Origin: Candidatus Onstottus frigus
Lineage (GTDB): Bacteria > Acidobacteriota > Blastocatellia > UBA7656
NCBI GenBank assembly: GCA_038040445.1
Contig: JBBPIG010000002.1
Location: 257,847 to 321,846, forward strand
Length of the DNA stretch: 64,000 nt
Reading direction: 5' to 3'
In this document: positions 16,527 to 26,600 of the stretch, piece by piece
Numbering within the stretch: the stretch's first letter is position 1
Layout: the number at the start of each line of letters is the position of its first letter
The notes under the pieces: model-generated
Seen by the model: only the letters and a program-made list of their open reading frames with translations
Told to the model about the DNA's origin: nothing
Databases searched by the model: none
Program-made: the position numbers and the translations under genes

Positions 16527-19500
16527 ATGAGCAGGAGGCATAGACTGATGAAGCCAAGAACTACGCATATCCGCCCATTTCTCTACAAGAAACTAGCGAA
16601 GACACTAATCGTCTTCTTGCTGCTATCAGGTTTCACCACACCGTGGTCCAAGACCTGGGCGCAGTCGGGTCCGACCGGCACATTGACCGGCGCGGTCACC
16701 GACCAAACCGGCGCACTGGTGGCTGGCGCCGCCGTCACTATCACCAACGCCGCGACGAAATCCAGCAGGAGTGTCACCACAGATCATGAAGGGCGATGGA
16801 AGGTTACCGCCCTTGATGTTGGCACTTATACTCTCGTTGTTGAGACCACAGGCTTTAAGAAGGCGATTGCTGAGAGAGTCGAGGTCGAAGCGGCAGTCCC
16901 GCGAACCGTCGATATCAAGCTTGAGCCCGGCGCGATCCAGGAGGCGGTAAACATTGTTGCCGGGAGCGAGGTGTTGCAGCGCGAGACAGCTACAACCTTC
17001 CGTCAGCTCAACTCGCTCGAGCTACAGGAAGTGCCTTCGTCGACGCGCAGCTTTACTCACCTGCTGTCAGCCGAAGCAGGCGTGAGCGCAGACCTTCCGC
17101 CAGTGCTCACAAACAGCAATGGCAATCTCTCGCCGTCGGTAAACGGTTTGCGCCCCACGTCAAACAGCCTGCAGTTTAACGGCGTTGACACCACCAACAT
17201 CACCTCGAACGAAGGCTCGCTTACGGACAACATTTCGCCCGCACCTGAAACGCTTCAGGAGGTCAAGCTGCAGACGAGCCTCTATGACGCCTCAACCGGG
17301 CGGAGCGGCGGCGGGAACTTCCAGTTGATAACCAAGTCGGGCGGCAACGACTTCCACGGCTCACTCTACTGGTTCCTTCAAAACGAGAAGTTCAACGCGA
17401 ACGACTTCTTCTACAACAAAGACGGGATCAACCGGCCGGTGGCGCGCCGCAATGAAGGCGGCTTTGCTATTGGCGGCCCTATCATCAAAGAGCGGTCGTT
17501 TTTCTTCGGAAGCTACCAGCGAACGCAGGCCAAGACTGGGTTTGTGCCGACCGCGCAGAGCATCACTCTGCTTCCGCGCGCATTGGATTTAGTCGGAACT
17601 GATCGCTCGGCTGCGGCTTTGATCAGTGCTTTCAAGCAACTCAATCCCGGCTTTAACCTCAACGCTTCGCAGGTGTCGAGGTTTGCGCTGAACCTGCTTA
17701 ACCTCAAGAATCCGGCAACAGGCGGCTTCATCATCCCTGCGCCGAGCAGCCTTCCCGGAGTAAAGGATTTGGTTGACGCCAATGGGGTCCCGCTGGTGGA
17801 TCTTGAAGGAAATCCGCTCGCGCGCTTGCGTCAGGTCTTTCCCGCTGAGTTCGAGCAAGACCAGTTCACCCTTCGCAACGATACGCAGTTGACGACGGCT
17901 AACAAGCTGGCCGTCACATTCTTCTTCTCGAATTTCCCCGGCCTCGATCCCTTTCCGGATCCATCGAGCCTTGCATCCCCGTTTACCCTCGAGCGTAATG
18001 ACCGCGCGCGGGCGCTTTCCGTTTCTGACATTCACTTGATAAGCAGCCGGGCCGTCAACGAAGCGCGCTTTGGCTATTTCAAGCTGAATAACACGCGGCA
18101 GGGCGCCGCGCAGTTTGACGGCATCACAAGTGAGAGCGTGCTTGAGGGGACAGGGGTGCCGATTCAGCAATTCAACCCTTCCGTGCTGTTCGACGACAGC
18201 TTGGCCACACGCCGTCTCGGACACTACACGGCCGCTCCGAATTTCAATTTCTCGTTCGGATACCCGAATGACTCCTACAACACGCGCAAGCAGCAGACCT
18301 ATACGTTAGCGGACATTCTCTCTTACACGCGGGGCGCGCACACGCTGCGACTGGGCGGCGAGTACAAGCGGCACTTCTATGACACGAGTTTGCCGGAAGA
18401 GCAGCAGACCGAGTTTGAAAAACAGCGCGGCTTCACGTCGCTGCTTCGAGGGTTGACGACCGAAGGCGATACCCAGTTCGGCATCACCGAAAAGAATTTC
18501 CGCATGCACGATTTGAGCTGGTTCGTGGCTGACGACTGGAAAGTCTCGCGCCGTCTGACGCTCAACGCCGGCCTGCGTTGGGACTGGTTCGCTTGGCCCA
18601 CCGAAAAGAACGGCCGCATCGGCAACGTGGATTTCGAGCAGGTCGGACCGAACCTTTTGCCGAGCGCTTTCATCGTGCCTAAGAATGTAAAGTCCACGGG
18701 TTTCGGCGCAATTGACGCAACGGTCGCAACCGCGGTGAAAATCGATAACAACCACACGCTGAAAGGGGAGGACCTGAACAACTTCCAACCGCGATTAGGA
18801 TTTGCCTGGACCCCATTTGACTCAAGCCGTCTGGTCGTTCGCGGCGGCTACGGAATCTTCTTTGACCGTCCATCTGCGGCGTTCGTCAACACGATCTTTT
18901 CAAACTATCCATTCCTGCGCGAGATCGAAGTGACAGCCCCGAGCAACGCCGTTCCTTTCCTGACCGCGTTCTCGCAGCAGAATCCGAACTTGCCGTTTAG
19001 CCAGTTCCTGCCGTTCAGGATTATCCTCAGAAGCGGCGTATATGAGATACGCGACAACACCGGCGTGACAAGAGGCGCGGACGGCACGCTCAACGCGAAT
19101 GATCCTGCCACCGGACAGCCCACCCTCGGTAACATCGCCGAGACGTTCGAGTTTCGGGCGATAGACCGCGGCCTGCGCACGCCTTACATCCAGCAATGGA
19201 ATCTGGGGTTCCAGCACGAGCTAGCCAAGAATCTGCTCATCGAAGCGCGATACGTTGGGACTAAGGGGACAAAGCTGCTGCAAGCTCTCGCGTTCAATCA
19301 GCCATTCGATTTGAATGATCCTTCGACCCCTGACTACATCTATCAGCGTTTCGTTGATGCTTACGTCGCGGCAGGCTCGCCGCGCGGCGCGCTCAATGCC
19401 GGAAGCACGGCGCGCGCGCGCGGCCTTGGCAAGGCGTTCGGATTCACGAATCCGCTCAGTGGCCAGATCGACCTGAACTTCTCCCAGCCGGTTGCGCTTG

Positions 19501-20396
19501 TGAACGGCCAGCCCAACCTCACGCAGCGAGTCATAATACCGTTCGAGGCTCGCGGGGTGAGCCTCGGGTTCAACATACCTGAAGCGCTGCTTCTCACATC
19601 AAGTGGCAATTCAACCTATCACGGATTGCAGCTTGGCTTGATGAAAAGGATGTCGAACGGATTGCAGTTCAATGCCGCATACACCTTCTCGAAATCAATG
19701 GACACAAGCTCGTCTGATCCCGGCTCGACGGCAGGCGGCGGCAAGCCCGACGTTCCAAACGTCGGATTCGTGCTTCAGGGCAATCAGCGAGACGTTCGCT
19801 CGAGCCGTGCGCTTTCGGACTACGATCGGCCGCATCGCGTCTCATTGTCGTTCGTCTACAACATTCCAAGCTTCGGCAGCGATTCGCGCCTGTTCACAGG
19901 CTGGCAGATAGCCAGTTTCATTCAGGCGCAGTCCGGCACTCCGTTCAGTATCTTTACATCGGAGCCTGAAGCGCGAACGCTGGGAGATCTGCTCTCTTTG
20001 AATCTCGGAGCGGGCGGACTGTACCGGCTAGGCTTTGGGCGTCCTAGCCTCAAACCGGGCACGACACTTGACGATCTCAGGCGGACGGGAGCCGACCCGA
20101 CTGAGGCTTTCTTCAACAAGGATGTGCTTGCCAGCCCGCTTGGGGGCTTTGGCAACATCGGGCGCAATGTTCTTCGCGGGCCGAATCAGAAGCGATTTGA
20201 CGTGAGCCTGTCGAAGACGACGAGGATAGTTGAAGACGTTAACATCGAGTTCCGTTGGGAGGTTTTCAACCTCTTCAACAACGTCAACTTCGCGACGCCC
20301 AACAACGACCTGCAAGACCGGCTTGATCTCGGAACGATCACAAACACGGTAGGCGGGCCGCGCGTGATGCAGTTTGGGCTGAAGCTCAGGTTTTAG
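16527..20396 (+). CDS. TonB-dependent outer-membrane receptor with N-terminal carboxypeptidase-regulatory-like domain
   Basis: Signal peptide; CarboxypepD_reg-like (TGTLTGAVTD…GTYTLVVE); plug; long beta-barrel ending in aromatic …GLKLRF. Confidence 0.85.
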   Translation: MSRRHRLMKPRTTHIRPFLYKKLAKTLIVFLLLSGFTTPWSKTWAQSGPTGTLTGAVTDQTGALVAGAAVTITNAATKSSRSVTTDHEGRWKVTALDVGTYTLVVETTGFKKAIAERVEVEAAVPRTVDIKLEPGAIQEAVNIVAGSEVLQRETATTFRQLNSLELQEVPSSTRSFTHLLSAEAGVSADLPPVLTNSNGNLSPSVNGLRPTSNSLQFNGVDTTNITSNEGSLTDNISPAPETLQEVKLQTSLYDASTGRSGGGNFQLITKSGGNDFHGSLYWFLQNEKFNANDFFYNKDGINRPVARRNEGGFAIGGPIIKERSFFFGSYQRTQAKTGFVPTAQSITLLPRALDLVGTDRSAAALISAFKQLNPGFNLNASQVSRFALNLLNLKNPATGGFIIPAPSSLPGVKDLVDANGVPLVDLEGNPLARLRQVFPAEFEQDQFTLRNDTQLTTANKLAVTFFFSNFPGLDPFPDPSSLASPFTLERNDRARALSVSDIHLISSRAVNEARFGYFKLNNTRQGAAQFDGITSESVLEGTGVPIQQFNPSVLFDDSLATRRLGHYTAAPNFNFSFGYPNDSYNTRKQQTYTLADILSYTRGAHTLRLGGEYKRHFYDTSLPEEQQTEFEKQRGFTSLLRGLTTEGDTQFGITEKNFRMHDLSWFVADDWKVSRRLTLNAGLRWDWFAWPTEKNGRIGNVDFEQVGPNLLPSAFIVPKNVKSTGFGAIDATVATAVKIDNNHTLKGEDLNNFQPRLGFAWTPFDSSRLVVRGGYGIFFDRPSAAFVNTIFSNYPFLREIEVTAPSNAVPFLTAFSQQNPNLPFSQFLPFRIILRSGVYEIRDNTGVTRGADGTLNANDPATGQPTLGNIAETFEFRAIDRGLRTPYIQQWNLGFQHELAKNLLIEARYVGTKGTKLLQALAFNQPFDLNDPSTPDYIYQRFVDAYVAAGSPRGALNAGSTARARGLGKAFGFTNPLSGQIDLNFSQPVALVNGQPNLTQRVIIPFEARGVSLGFNIPEALLLTSSGNSTYHGLQLGLMKRMSNGLQFNAAYTFSKSMDTSSSDPGSTAGGGKPDVPNVGFVLQGNQRDVRSSRALSDYDRPHRVSLSFVYNIPSFGSDSRLFTGWQIASFIQAQSGTPFSIFTSEPEARTLGDLLSLNLGAGGLYRLGFGRPSLKPGTTLDDLRRTGADPTEAFFNKDVLASPLGGFGNIGRNVLRGPNQKRFDVSLSKTTRIVEDVNIEFRWEVFNLFNNVNFATPNNDLQDRLDLGTITNTVGGPRVMQFGLKLRF

Positions 20397-20506: not shown

Positions 20507-20920
20507 TTGAAACAAGCAGGCCGGCCCCGGTTTGGCGAACAAATGGCATCAGAACCAAGATTCTCATTCAGGCAACTCTCACGCGCAAACAACGATCAAG
20601 ACGCAAACGTCTACGATGATGGCTACCTGCGCGTAGAGTACGACAACTATTACGTCGCCTGCGGCGGAAAGCGGATTTCGCTTCCGCTCAAAGAGTTTCT
20701 GATCTTTTCTCGGCTCGCGTGCAACGCCGATCGCATCGTGCCCTCCGAAGAGATATGGCGTTATGCGTGGGGCGACTCGCCATTCAACTCACTGAGCCTT
20801 CGTGTACACATTCATCGCCTGCGACGGACGTTTCAGCCGTTCGGTCTTCGGATAGAGAGCATGGTCGGAGTCGGCTATTGCCTCTCAGTCGAATCACGAG
20901 GGTTAGACATTCAAGAATAG
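20507..20920 (+). CDS. Stand-alone OmpR/PhoB-type winged-helix DNA-binding domain protein (no receiver)
   Basis: ISLPLKEFLIFSRLACNADRIVPSEEIWRYAWGD…LRVHIHRLRRTF…GVGYCL = trans_reg_C. Confidence 0.55.
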   Translation: MKQAGRPRFGEQMASEPRFSFRQLSRANNDQDANVYDDGYLRVEYDNYYVACGGKRISLPLKEFLIFSRLACNADRIVPSEEIWRYAWGDSPFNSLSLRVHIHRLRRTFQPFGLRIESMVGVGYCLSVESRGLDIQE

Positions 20921-21561: not shown

Positions 21562-23277
21562 CTAGGTTCGCGCGAATATGTCTCGCTCTTCGCCAAGCTC
21601 GCGCGCGGCCGGTGTGATTATGGTCTTGCCGTTGATGTAGATCTTCTCGTGCGCCGCCATTGCGAGCTTCACATCCTCCTCACAGACGAAATCGTAGACT
21701 CGTCCGTTGCTCGCTCGATTCGTTGACGCCGGCGGCGCAGCTTGCGATGGCGCCTGTTGGTGCGGTCTCTCAAACGAAGTGCCGGCAGGGCTAGGAAGCT
21801 GCGACAGCGGTTGCGCGGGTGGCTGAACACGGCGTTCGGCCAGGAACCGATCTACAAGCGCGGCAATTTCGGCGCGATCGACCGTCGCCGCCGGCCGCGC
21901 TACTGGCCGCGCCGGCGCGGCTGCGTGATTGATCGGCTTCGTCTCGAACGCGATGCGTTTTATGTCTAGGAGATGGCGCGGCGAGATGTTGTCCGAGGTA
22001 ACGTTCCCTCCCCACGATCCGCACCCAAGCGTCATCGACGGCTCGAGGTCGGTTGTGAAGCCAATCGCTCCGTGCGTCGAAGGGCTGTTGACCACAACTC
22101 GCGACGCGGGCATGCGAATACCGTATTCGCGAGCGGCATCGCGGCTCTCGGTGTGGATCGAAGCGGTGTGACCCATGCCTCCGTATCTGAGTATCTGAGC
22201 GCATCGTTCGCAGCCCTGTTCGAAACTATCAACCACGTAGTAAGCAAGTATCGGCGAGAGCTTCTCCATCGACAGCGGATGATCGCGCCCCACGCCGGAA
22301 AGCTCGCAGATCAGCACGCGAGTTCCGTCGGGTATCGTGAGCCCGGCCATCTCAGCAATAACCTTCGGGCTCTTGCCGACAATCTTCGGATTGAGTGTGT
22401 TAGTGGCCGTCGCGACGACCCGCGTCAATGCGTCCTGTTGTTCCTTGCCCAGGAAGTAAGCGCCCTCGGCAAGCAGCCGCTCTCGCACGTGCGAGTCGAC
22501 TGCCCGCTCGACGACGATCGCTTGCTCTGACGAGCAGATGGTCCCGTTGTCGAAACACTTGCCGGTAAGAATATCGCGCACAGCTTTCGAGACATTGGCT
22601 GAGCGCTCGATCATCGCCGGGACGTTGCCCGGCCCGACGCCGAAGGCAGGCTTGCCGGAAGAGTACGCCGCGCGCACCAGGCCTATTCCGCCCGTTGCAA
22701 GTATCACCGCGGTTCGCTTGTGCTTCATCAGCTCCTGTGTGCCTTCGATCGTCGCTACGGTCATGCATCCGATCGCGCCTGCGGGCAAGCCGGCTGCTTC
22801 CCCCGCTTCGCGCATCACCCGCGCTGTCTCGTTGATGCAGTTGGTAGCCGACGGATGCGGGCTCAACACCACTGCGTCGCGAGCCTTGATGGCGATCAGG
22901 ATTTTGAAGATGGCAGTGGAGGTCGGATTGGTCGAAGGAATTATCGCGGCTACCACGCCCCGCGGTGAAGCGACTTCGATTATGCTGTCGGTCTGGCGAA
23001 CGACGCCGACGGTACGCATCGGCTTGATAAAGTTATAAACCTGTTCGGCTGAGAATCGATTCTTGCTGGCCTTATCTGCCGCTGAACCGTAGCCAGTTTC
23101 CAGGTGGGCCATCTCGCCGAGGCGGTAGGCGTCTTCCAGTGCTACGCGGGCCATCGCGCCCACGATCTCGTCAACTTTCTCTTGTGCGAACGCGCCTAGT
23201 GTCTTTTGTGCTTCGTGCGCTCGTTCGACAAGCTCTCGCGCCTGCTCGATGGATTTCAGGTCCTTGTCGCTGCTCAT
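21562..23277 (-). CDS. CoA-acylating aldehyde dehydrogenase (PduP/EutE family) with ~120-aa C-terminal extension
   Basis: Core matches PduP/EutE throughout ([10 protein letters not shown]…; catalytic Cys in [11 protein letters not shown]); C-terminus has amphipathic helix [18 protein letters not shown], Pro/Gln-rich linker, and conserved ~40-aa tail [38 protein letters not shown]. Confidence 0.85.
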
Positions 23278-23296
23278 GACAACTGCTCAATCAAAG

Positions 23297-23350
23297 AGTC
23301 CGTAGTCCGTCCGTAAGTGTGCAGCCGGCAAATTGCTACGGACTACGGAT
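23297..23350. repeat. REP-like palindromic element, second copy (AGTCCGTAGTCCGTCCGTAAG … CTACGGACTACGGAT)
   Basis: Same arms as element at 11238-11320; lies between BMC-H and aldDH genes. Confidence 0.55.
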
Positions 23351-23353
23351 TTC

Positions 23354-23749
23354 CTATTTAGCTCGCTCTTTCGAAGGGGTAGGAGAAGACAGCGAGCGCT
23401 TGCCGTCCTCTTGCGCGCCAGCCGTCAACTGGCCGCGGGCTTCTCCGCCGAGTTGCGCACCAGGGTTGACGATCCCACTCGATTCCAACACTTGCTCGAG
23501 CTCCTTATGGGGACGCGGTATTACATGAACGCTGACCAACTCGCCGACGCGACGGGCCGCAGCCGCTCCCGCGTCGGTCGCCGCCTTTACAGCGCCGACG
23601 TCGCCGCGAACCAACACGGTCACGTAGCCGGCCCCGATGTACTCGCGGCCAACAAGTACGACGTTGGCGGCTTTGACCATTGCGTCAGCGGCCTCCACTG
23701 CTCCCACGAATCCTTTGGTCTCGATCATTCCTAGTGCTTCGGTATTCAT
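23354..23749 (-). CDS. Bacterial microcompartment shell protein BMC-H (PduA/CcmK type) with ~45-aa C-terminal tail
   Basis: [30 protein letters not shown]…[39 protein letters not shown]: near-canonical Pfam00936 sequence. Confidence 0.9.
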
Positions 23750-24117: not shown

Positions 24118-25056
24118 ATGCCGACACTGGGCGAAGAACTGAGACACAAGCGGGAACAGCGCGGTATCACGCTTGCTGAAATAGCGGAAGCGACCCGGAT
24201 CGGCACGCGCTTTCTGAAAGCCATCGAGACGGACAATTTCTCCATCCTTCCAGGCGGAATCTTCACCCGCTCCTTCATCCGAGCATATGCCAAACACGTC
24301 GGCATGAACGAAGACGAAGCGATAGGATTGTATCTCGAACAGGTCGCGGGCCCGACCATTGAGCAACAACAACCAGCAGATCAACCCAACATTCAGACCC
24401 CGCCGGCGGAGAAGATAACCAAGCTGGCGCCCACTTCATCCGGTATCGCCAGACCGGCAGCGCCCGTTGCCGCGAGTTCACGCCGCTTCGAGCCGGTCAC
24501 CTTTCGTCAGTCGCCTGCCCGCACAAGCTGGCCGACGATCGTGATCGGCGCGGGAATTGTGATTTTCATCGTGATCATTGTGATCGCTCTGGTTAAGCAG
24601 CTCAATCAAGGGGGAGGTGAAACCGAATCGCAAGCCACTTCTTCTGAGCAAAAGAATGCGCCTTCGAAGCAAGCTCCTCAAACGGGGAAACAGCCGGCGG
24701 CTCAACCCGGCTCGCGCTCGTCCGGTGAGCCTGCTTCCCCGCCGCCCGCGGAAACGTCTTCGCCTCCGGCATCGGCGCCGGCTGGCGAGCCGCTCCTCGT
24801 CAAGATCGAAGCAGCTACCGGCGATAGTTGGGTCAAATACCAGGTCGATGACGCCAAGCCGACTACTCTGGTATTGAAACGGGGCCAGTCCCAAGACCTT
24901 CCTCCGGCCCAAAGCCAGGTCACGCTGAACTACGGCGACCGGACTACGCTCAAGCTAAAGATCAACAACCGCGATGCCAACTTCCCTGCCGACACCCCAA
25001 AATTCGCTTCGCAGGTGGTCATCTCCAGGAACAATTTCCGAACGTTCTTTCAATAG
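24118..25056 (+). CDS. RodZ-like membrane protein (HTH_XRE N-domain, single TM, DUF4115-like C-domain)
   Basis: LRHKREQRGITLAEIAEATRIGTRFLKAIE HTH; TM WPTIVIGAGIVIFIVIIVIALV; Pro/Ala-rich linker; C-terminal beta domain. Confidence 0.65.
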   Translation: MPTLGEELRHKREQRGITLAEIAEATRIGTRFLKAIETDNFSILPGGIFTRSFIRAYAKHVGMNEDEAIGLYLEQVAGPTIEQQQPADQPNIQTPPAEKITKLAPTSSGIARPAAPVAASSRRFEPVTFRQSPARTSWPTIVIGAGIVIFIVIIVIALVKQLNQGGGETESQATSSEQKNAPSKQAPQTGKQPAAQPGSRSSGEPASPPPAETSSPPASAPAGEPLLVKIEAATGDSWVKYQVDDAKPTTLVLKRGQSQDLPPAQSQVTLNYGDRTTLKLKINNRDANFPADTPKFASQVVISRNNFRTFFQ

Positions 25057-25142: not shown

Positions 25143-26600
25143 TCAGTGTCGGAGTTTTTCTACCCAGCTCTTAACTAACTGAGGGATCGAATCAGCGGCG
25201 GCAGAATCAAAAGCGCGACCGCCCTCAGCGAAATGTGGCGCGTAAATACCATATATGTTTGACCAATCTCTCAGGCTATCAGCCGATCCACCCTCCACCA
25301 AGAGAAGGACAGGTTTGCTTTGCCCGTGGAAGAATCCAGCTTCATATGGAAGATTCTTACCCAGCACGTCGGACCCACTTAGACCTACGACAAGAACGAT
25401 AGCAGCGTCGGCGATCCACATTTTCGCTGAGACTTCATTAAAAATCAGGACCGGGGCCTCTGGCTCTCGTTCGGGGGACGCCTCCAGCGCCATGCATCCG
25501 TTAGCAACCAGGTTGTCGCGAACGCTGCGCGCAATTTGCTCGGCACGAGAGTCGCTAGTAAACCGACGGGAGACAAAGATTGGGATCTGGCCGTCCGGTA
25601 CGCGTTTCTGTTCATGCCGCACCTGGTAGAGAATGTTCTTCGGAACATGGGCAACGACTGCATCGGGAGTACGAGGGTAAACCGAATCAACGCCAGCTAT
25701 TCCATCGTTCATGTTCACTTTTATCAAATACTCTGGCGGAAGGTCGAGAAGGTCAGTTTCTACTCCTTCAAAAATACCATCACTGTTGCTCCCACCCTTC
25801 GGCTCACAGACGGCAACTAGGACAGCGTTACCCGCTGATGCTCCGCCGCGCCTTAAGAGCGTGGATAGTATGTTGAGATTACGGTCAACCAGAATTTGAG
25901 TTAGCACCTTCAAAGCTCCAGGCCGGTCGGAATGCTCGATAGATACGGTTTTCGCTCCCTTATAAGGAAATACGAAGCGGAGAAGGCGCTCATCCGTATC
26001 GGCTGAAACGACAGCTTTGGTCAAATCAATATTGTTGCTTAGACTCCCATAACGTCGGGCAATCTCTCTCTTCCAGCGGGTGCGCATCAGCCACCCGTGT
26101 TCAACCTCGCCTTTATCGGTCCACCTGACATGTCGCTGTGGAAAGTGCTCGATACGAACCCTTTCAAAACCCCGATCTGTGAGTGTCCGCCTTAAGGATT
26201 GCGATCGGACCGGGAAAGCTCTTCTGCCCTGCATAGGCTCACATATCAAGGTAATATCATGGAGCGCTCCTCCTTCCATTGTTATTGACTCGGCAAGCGC
26301 GATATTGAGATTGCTAACTACATCGACGGCACCAGCGACGACGCCGGGCTGATCCCGGCGACGACACTCAACGCGTATCATCCGATGACGCTGGAAAGGG
26401 TCGAGCACTGACACGATGAGATCACCAACCGGGCGTTCCCTTCCTTCAATTAACGATATGTAACATCGCGTATAGGATTGGAAGCCCAGAGGCGCGCGAT
26501 GCCACCAAGGCAGAGGTAAGTCAGTTCGATCCCGTGGCAGGCTTATTAGATCACCCAGAACTTGCATCTTGAACCTGTAAGTTAAGGGGCCAGCCAACAA
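25143..26600 (-). CDS. Tandem ACT domains fused to a C-terminal TIR-like (DUF1863/flavodoxin-fold) domain
   Basis: ACT1 RMIRVECRRRDQPGVVAGAVDVVSNLNIAL…; ACT2 TVSIEHSDRPGALKVLTQILVDRNLNILS…; C-terminus IPIFVSRRFTSDS… AKMWIADAAIVLVVGLSGSDV…YEAGFFHGQSKPVLLLV resembles a TIR-like betaA / alphaC-W…E…KPV pattern; ~50% GC; TTG start at 26600 or ATG at 26567. Confidence 0.5.
   Translation of the reverse strand: MLAGPLTYRFKMQVLGDLISLPRDRTDLPLPWWHRAPLGFQSYTRCYISLIEGRERPVGDLIVSVLDPFQRHRMIRVECRRRDQPGVVAGAVDVVSNLNIALAESITMEGGALHDITLICEPMQGRRAFPVRSQSLRRTLTDRGFERVRIEHFPQRHVRWTDKGEVEHGWLMRTRWKREIARRYGSLSNNIDLTKAVVSADTDERLLRFVFPYKGAKTVSIEHSDRPGALKVLTQILVDRNLNILSTLLRRGGASAGNAVLVAVCEPKGGSNSDGIFEGVETDLLDLPPEYLIKVNMNDGIAGVDSVYPRTPDAVVAHVPKNILYQVRHEQKRVPDGQIPIFVSRRFTSDSRAEQIARSVRDNLVANGCMALEASPEREPEAPVLIFNEVSAKMWIADAAIVLVVGLSGSDVLGKNLPYEAGFFHGQSKPVLLLVEGGSADSLRDWSNIYGIYAPHFAEGGRAFDSAAADSIPQLVKSWVEKLRH

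Follow-up and report, generated by a model that had tools for sequence, protein, structure and literature searches.

The locus described here lies in a stretch of Candidatus Onstottus frigus DNA of 64,000 nucleotides (contig JBBPIG010000002.1, positions 257,847 to 321,846), hereafter the window, within which all coordinates are given. According to the list of open reading frames (ORFs), it contained two minus-strand ORFs, 76 bp apart, whose predicted products belong to families of bacterial microcompartments (BMCs): a BMC-H shell protein of 131 aa (23354..23749), which is the first of the pair, and a coenzyme A (CoA)-acylating aldehyde dehydrogenase (AldDh) of 571 aa (21562..23277). The spacer between these genes on a common strand is short (23278..23353), and the terminator scan found no terminator-like site in it; a weak terminator-like site was located about 500 nt downstream of the AldDh gene. 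The shared strand, the short and terminator-free gap, and the gene order conserved in other genomes indicate that the two genes are probably co-transcribed. Upstream of the BMC-H gene, the promoter scan gave no hit on the minus strand, and the promoter and terminator counts in the scan were not above those in shuffled sequences. An Rfam scan of the whole window gave no match.

The 131-aa protein scored 100 bits against PF00936 (cutoff 24.5) and covered 75 of the 75 profile positions, in agreement with an earlier annotation made from the DNA letters without database searches (the sequence-only reading), which had taken it for a BMC-H protein. In Pfam terms it is a BMC-H because it has a single, non-permuted BMC domain above the gathering threshold, with the profile order kept. 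The domain proper (aa 5-80; 23510..23737, minus strand) carries the edge lysine (DAMVKAA), the IGAG pore motif, and PRPH, and a PDB search returned PduA and EutM as its closest solved relatives. Such a protein would serve as a standard hexameric shell tile. The C-terminal tail that had also been pointed out earlier (aa 89-131; 23357..23485, minus strand) comprises about 43 aa, is rich in Gly, Ala, Gln, and Ser, and is probably disordered. It was kept in close relatives only (56-64% identity in loci L003 and L004) and was absent from more distant orthologs. Pfam and NCBIfam searches with the isolated BMC-H and AldDh tails matched no family.

The 571-aa protein is an acylating AldDh, as had been proposed, with 86.8 bits to PF00171 over aa 11-402 and a catalytic core (aa 1-452; 21922..23277, minus strand) in which the catalytic-Cys motif GTICSSEQ begins at residue 245 (aa 245-252). 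The best NCBIfam model by far was TIGR02518 (acetylating acetaldehyde dehydrogenase), at 610.3 bits against an equivalog cutoff of 620.1, followed by the AdhE N-terminal model at 551 bits. The "PduP/EutE-like" label of the sequence-only reading has to be replaced, since the EutE/PduP-type model PRK15398 reached 240 bits against a cutoff of 403. The PDB neighbors gave the same ranking, with 5J78 at 500 bits, Listeria 3K9D at 485, AdhE at about 378, and PduP-type structures at 144-192; these solved relatives cover aa 3-449, and no chain aligns past residue 449. The BMC locus catalogue divides BMC AldDhs into type I (IPR013357), with a C-terminal encapsulation peptide (EP), and type II, with an N-terminal EP (Sutter et al., 2021). 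By its model scores, the window enzyme appears to be a type I (EUT2/AdhE-like) relative, and not necessarily an acetaldehyde-specific equivalog. Its TIGR02518 alignment begins at residue 4, which leaves no N-terminal extension that could hold an EP, as had been claimed.

The C-terminal region of the AldDh consists of an EP-like helix (aa 468-481; 21835..21876), a disordered linker rich in Pro, Gln, Ala, and Ser (aa 482-525; 21703..21834), and a terminal mini-domain (aa 526-571; 21565..21702), all on the minus strand. The sequence-only reading had described these three elements, and the sequences that it quoted are present in the protein. Their conservation was assessed in a set of at least 120 homologs from Acidobacteriota and Blastocatellia metagenome-assembled genomes (MAGs) that were 79-100% identical to the window protein and 553-600 aa long. 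The tail layout was kept in 120 of 120 homologs among the matches listed, which bears out the expectation that the tail is conserved in orthologs. Mean identity to the window in these 120 homologs reached 0.93 in the helix and 0.90 in the catalytic core, against 0.59 in the pre-helix spacer (aa 453-467) and 0.34 in the linker; the terminal module had 0.82. Between the VDRFL motif in the helix and the module lay 35 to 64 residues. AlphaFold2 modeled the 130-residue tail as a helix at aa 468-481 (predicted local distance difference test score, pLDDT, about 63-79), a disordered linker (pLDDT <55), and a folded end. The module alone was modeled with a mean pLDDT of 89.4 as a beta-alpha-beta-beta-alpha-beta fold whose helices span module residues 11-19 and 34-42.

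The helix has the layout of a canonical EP, namely a short conserved helix (0.93) between weakly conserved flanks (0.59 and 0.34). One 140-degree arc holds its Ile, Leu, Val, Phe, and Leu, but its hydrophobic moment is not exceptional (see below). The TIGR02518 alignment spans it (AldDh aa 4-481 to profile positions 1-486 of 488), and similar helices close the sequences of the EUT2-type type I enzymes from the fetched loci (e.g., ...IEEIVRRVLAELKR); the helix is therefore the counterpart of the EUT2 C-terminal EP. The C-terminal position of the EP, which the sequence-only reading had set against the missing N-terminal one, is not unusual because it is the rule for type I AldDhs. What is special in the window lineage is the linker and the folded module that follow the helix.

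Among 1.84 billion representative proteins, a profile search with the module matched 594 clusters at E<=1e-3, and 150 of 150 module carriers among the matches listed were C-termini or fragments of the AldDh lineage of the window. On this ground, the module was rejected as a tag common to several ACI cargo proteins (ACI being the catalogued locus type discussed below). No Pfam family covers the module segment. In several MAG assemblies the AldDh frame was split into at least two pieces (L006:10484-12270, L025:10376-12091, L046:10424-12425, and L069:10299-12125); these broken frames are probably assembly frameshifts and not pseudogenes, and such frameshifts account for many short module-bearing "proteins" in the representative library. 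When the PDB was searched with the module profile, the only match was to the peripheral-subunit-binding domains of E2 proteins and was non-significant (E=0.6). The second half of the module is similar to helix 1 of these domains (..TLATPAVRNLAMENNI; PDB 3rnm_E/1zwv_A) and the first half (..EEDV..A) to their last helix, in permuted order; this likeness was not relied on at such an E-value.

A hidden Markov model (HMM) built from 150 diverse modules was used to search every ORF of the fetched BMC loci and matched the C-termini of two PduL-type phosphotransacylases (L058, E=2.5e-6; L068, E=3e-3) and the N-termini of two clostridial EutQ proteins (L070, E=5e-4; L077, E=1.4e-3). Matches to the C-termini of PF02441 flavoprotein-like proteins were weak, and the N-termini of E. 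coli EutQ and EutT gave E=0.11 and E=0.68, respectively. A reciprocal profile of eight non-AldDh instances recovered all AldDh modules, but this test was partly circular because its seeds came from the module HMM, and it was therefore replaced by a EutQ set selected through the cupin. For this purpose, an independent EutQ-N HMM was made from the first 55 residues of EutQ proteins that were gathered via the cupin domain only, and it was run against the ORF set together with reversed decoys. The EutQ-N HMM found more than 45 AldDh modules in register, with E-values from 2.7e-7 to 0.02; the window module had E=2.1e-4, and the best reversed decoy 0.24. Furthermore, HHalign aligned the AldDh-module profile to the EutQ-N profile with 98.3% probability (E=1.2e-14) over 42 columns that correspond to EutQ residues ~3-46. 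On this profile evidence, the terminal module and the N-terminal H1/H2 segment of EutQ (residues ~3-46) are homologous.

Other proteins also carried related segments. The PduL case was backed by two independent profiles, and the other non-EutQ carriers were weaker: the C-termini of PF02441 flavoprotein-like proteins, the N-termini of EutT-like adenosyltransferases, a 127-aa Anaerolineales protein (N-terminus), and a 509-aa Treponemataceae protein (internal). ORFs with segments that resembled the module or EutQ-N were located at L058:5202-6224, L068:5231-6265, L018:13312-14085, L033:11726-12460, L040:11096-11845, L067:5578-5958, L070:3705-4421, L035:9988-11514, and L083:17503-18306.

The EutQ segment has been mapped experimentally. 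Residues 1-99 of Salmonella EutQ are enough to target GFP to Eut organelles, and EutQ that has lost residues 9-41 (H1/H2) stays with the cargo aggregate and is off the shell (PMC12487888). The EPs of EutC and EutE are bound by EutQ residues 62-99, with residues 2-62 uninvolved by nuclear magnetic resonance (NMR), and EutM and EutL are binding partners of EutQ (PMC12487888). The N-terminal 100 aa of EutQ are also required for EutM pull-down (PMC4827028). Module-bearing AldDhs and EutQ show a complementary distribution: a EutQ cupin gene was found within 10 kb in 0 of 40 module-bearing AldDh loci, and module-less EUT2 AldDhs share their loci with EutQ genes in L070 and L077. No published link between the terminal domain of ACI AldDhs and EutQ was found in the literature searched.

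The surroundings of the pair were searched for other shell genes with tblastn, using the BMC-H of the window and three BMC-P probes. In agreement with the sequence-only reading, no BMC-P, no second BMC-H, and no other core gene were found in the 64 kb; the same BMC-P probes detected BMC-P genes in dozens of other loci, one of which was confirmed by Pfam. A scan of species-representative genomes seeded with the window BMC-H yielded 80 loci, and in more than 45 of them BMC-H was directly followed by a module-bearing AldDh. The pair occurred in Pyrinomonadaceae, other Blastocatellia, Vicinamibacterales, Bryobacterales, Terriglobia, and Acidiferrales. Since this survey was seeded with BMC-H, three contexts picked by AldDh alone were also examined, and all three contained the minimal pair with unrelated flanks.

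A Pyrinomonadaceae subgroup harbored an extended locus (L010:12439-16227; also L005-L008, L011, L014, L019, and L028), in which AldDh was followed by a BMC-P (PF03319), an ACT-domain protein, a zinc-ribbon protein, a DUF711/PF05167 protein (481 aa), a 188-aa protein, and a second BMC-H. The window did not contain these extension genes. The available portion of the catalogue's ACI description makes no mention of an ACT and DUF711 pair within a BMC locus. Two loci were found in records titled "uncultured Clostridia bacterium" (L003, CAZPQE010000092.1) and "Heliomicrobium sp." (L021, JAJNQA010000012.1), and they had acidobacterial-type BMC-H (87-90% identical to the window) and module-bearing AldDh (core identity of 82% and 66%, respectively). 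These labels likely reflect mis-binning or mislabeling, or otherwise a recent transfer.

The gene pair corresponds to a catalogued arrangement. In the catalogue, the ACI type comprises 125 loci, from Acidobacteria only and mainly from subdivisions 4 and 6 (Sutter, Melnicki, Schulz, Woyke & Kerfeld 2021, Nat Commun 12:3809, Supplementary Data 2). As described there, the ACI satellite contains a pfam00171 AldDh away from the main locus, with an EP near the C-terminus followed by a domain of about 50 aa of unknown function, and a BMC-H with mostly standard motifs occasionally lies alongside this AldDh (Sutter et al., 2021). The main locus, in the same description, contains a pfam00596 aldolase with a C-terminal EP, a pfam00389/02826 dehydrogenase, a BMC-P triplet, and BMC-H (Sutter et al., 2021). 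In the window, the AldDh stands apart from other shell and core genes over 64 kb and adjoins a BMC-H with the lysine, PRPH, and pore motifs, and the AldDh homologs at 79-89% identity are named Blastocatellia. An identical protein belongs to an NCBI "Acidobacteriota bacterium" MAG. These names point indirectly to an acidobacterial host as in ACI. The locus is thus a further instance of the catalogued ACI type and not a new one, because it matches the description of the ACI satellite. Of the two options offered by the sequence-only reading, a satellite agrees with this description, and an "unusually reduced" locus does not hold because in this clade the locus commonly consists of these two genes. 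Its remark that acidobacterial BMC loci are poorly characterized is correct as regards experiments; as regards cataloguing, they have been recorded since 2021. No later work on ACI was found in the literature searched.

We consider it likely that the pair is a satellite of an ACI-type metabolosome, and that the AldDh tail combines an EP helix with a module that docks the enzyme to shell hexamers. The EP-plus-docking-domain proposal is made because the module aligns to exactly the H1/H2 segment of EutQ that is needed for shell association. The pair would be the aldehyde-dehydrogenase satellite of an ACI-type catabolic BMC in a Blastocatellia-like acidobacterium, in which the AldDh would turn an aldehyde produced by main-locus enzymes into acyl-CoA inside the organelle. 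The aldehyde would come from a class II aldolase that acts on a sugar phosphate, an origin suggested by the catalogue. The helix would drive cargo coalescence or encapsulation, and the mini-domain would dock the AldDh onto shell hexamers, plausibly those of the co-encoded BMC-H. The AldDh would in this way partly take over the role that the separate adaptor EutQ has in Eut organelles.

Several points weigh against this interpretation. The ACI main locus (aldolase, hydroxyacid dehydrogenase, and BMC-P triplet) was not in the 64-kb window, and membership of a complete ACI organelle in this genome is putative. Shell binding by the module is proposed by homology to a segment that was mapped by in vivo deletions, and a Foldseek search of the module against the PDB gave no significant match (best E=0.24). 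ACI shells are usually without a EutL-type protein, so the binding surface of the module may differ from that of EutQ. The hydrophobic moment (muH) of the helix, 0.45-0.52, was reached by 11-12% of shuffled sequences and is unremarkable. The substrate need not be acetaldehyde because the TIGR02518 score is just under the equivalog cutoff, and the count of absent EutQ genes spans only 10 kb on each side of the satellite locus.

The module might instead be an adaptor to another core component, such as the phosphotransacylase or the hydroxyacid dehydrogenase, or might mediate oligomerization or condensation of the AldDh, rather than shell docking. Related segments occur on several different cargo enzymes, which equally fits a cargo-cargo "glue", and the E2 domains that the module weakly and non-significantly resembles dock partner enzymes. 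The mapping in EutQ points the other way, since binding to cargo EPs maps to residues 63-99 with no NMR shifts for residues 2-62, and loss of residues 9-41 keeps the link to cargo while abolishing that to the shell (PMC12487888). An adaptor or oligomerization role is accordingly considered unlikely next to docking of the AldDh to the shell.

A closed organelle may also be unnecessary. The genome could lack pentamers and an ACI main locus altogether, with BMC-H sheets, tubes, or scaffolds tethering the AldDh. The lack of BMC-P and other core genes in the 64 kb and the unrelated genes that flank the pair in all contexts examined are consistent with such an arrangement, in which the module and the adjoining BMC-H could be self-sufficient. 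However, the catalogue places the AldDh as a satellite in genomes with a main ACI locus and a BMC-P triplet, and the related Pyrinomonadaceae loci have BMC-P directly after AldDh, which makes a stand-alone function improbable. An ordinary cytosolic acetaldehyde dehydrogenase, with an incidental BMC-H neighbor and a tail unrelated to microcompartments, could be argued from the non-BMC enzymes such as AdhE among the best sequence relatives, but it is hardly credible given an adjacency conserved in more than 45 species, a module restricted among the matches listed to a BMC-linked AldDh lineage, and homology of that module to segments of other BMC-locus proteins.

Beyond the docking role favored here for the ACI AldDh, the module of about 46 aa could be a widespread shell-docking mini-domain, that is, a class of targeting signal that exists beside the amphipathic-helix EPs and is placed on the termini of different cargo. 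This broader proposal is held tentatively, somewhat short of even odds. The ACI AldDh, with both EP and module, would itself be the bridge between shell and cargo, as EutQ is in Eut. The putative placements, as judged by profile similarity, would be the C-termini of ACI-lineage AldDhs and of some PduL proteins, and the N-terminus of EutQ; flavoprotein-like proteins and EutT may be further carriers. What is new here is that a domain listed with unknown function in the catalogue is tied to the experimentally mapped shell-association segment of EutQ. This link gives a concrete and cheaply testable idea of how an uncharacterized organelle of acidobacteria, which are abundant soil bacteria, anchors its cargo to the shell, and it hints at repeated use of a single small folded module in several types of microcompartment. 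Should the module bind shell tiles, it would also offer a compact new tag with which to load engineered microcompartments.

The neighboring genes are of other kinds. A gene encoding a RodZ-like HTH_25 membrane protein (24118..25056, plus strand; PF13413 at 76 bits, and RodZ_C) lies divergently to the pair, and such a gene was found divergently upstream of BMC-H in 25 loci and in two of the three contexts picked by AldDh; it could be a case of conserved synteny or a regulator. Convergent with AldDh is a 137-aa ORF (20507-20920, plus strand) with a winged-helix Trans_reg_C domain only and no receiver domain. The idea that it is a response-regulator stump left by deletion of an extended locus was dropped because its sole similarity was 38% identity to the C-terminal part of the PhoB-like regulator of the window, and it was not kept beside the locus elsewhere. 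Farther out, and both unrelated to the locus, are a 485-aa protein with one ACT domain (25143-26600, minus strand), with no counterpart in any fetched locus, and a 1289-aa CarboxypepD_reg/outer-membrane beta-barrel protein (16527-20396, plus strand). A cluster of PhoU, PhoB-like, and histidine-kinase genes is present near 11-14 kb of the window.

Among the known systems, the ACI satellite locus is the closest, and the window shares with it the acidobacterial host, the distant AldDh with an EP and a domain of about 50 aa, and the BMC-H with standard motifs. The window copy shows no difference of substance; it is without the occasional fourth BMC-P, and its own BMC-H has the extra tail of about 43 aa. 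The EUT2-type type I AldDhs (IPR013357/TIGR02518; Listeria 3K9D and Geobacillus 5J78) have the same catalytic fold and Cys motif and, in common with the window enzyme, a C-terminal EP-like helix that is aligned by TIGR02518; these enzymes stop at the EP, whereas the window lineage adds a linker of 35-64 aa and a folded 46-aa module. AdhE has an alcohol dehydrogenase domain in place of this linker and module. PduP and E. coli EutE (type II, IPR012408) belong to the same reaction class and have the same organelle role, but they bear an N-terminal EP, unlike the window AldDh, and are much less similar to it (PRK15398 at 240 bits against a cutoff of 403; structures at 144-192 bits). EutQ's N-terminal region from Salmonella and E. 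coli has homologous sequence and the two-helix layout of the AldDh module, and in both proteins a disordered linker connects the segment to another targeting element. In EutQ the segment is N-terminal and is followed by the EP-binding helices H3/H4 and a cupin acetate-kinase domain, so that it is paired with an EP receptor, whereas in the AldDh it is the cargo enzyme itself that bears the module, at its C-terminus and together with an EP.

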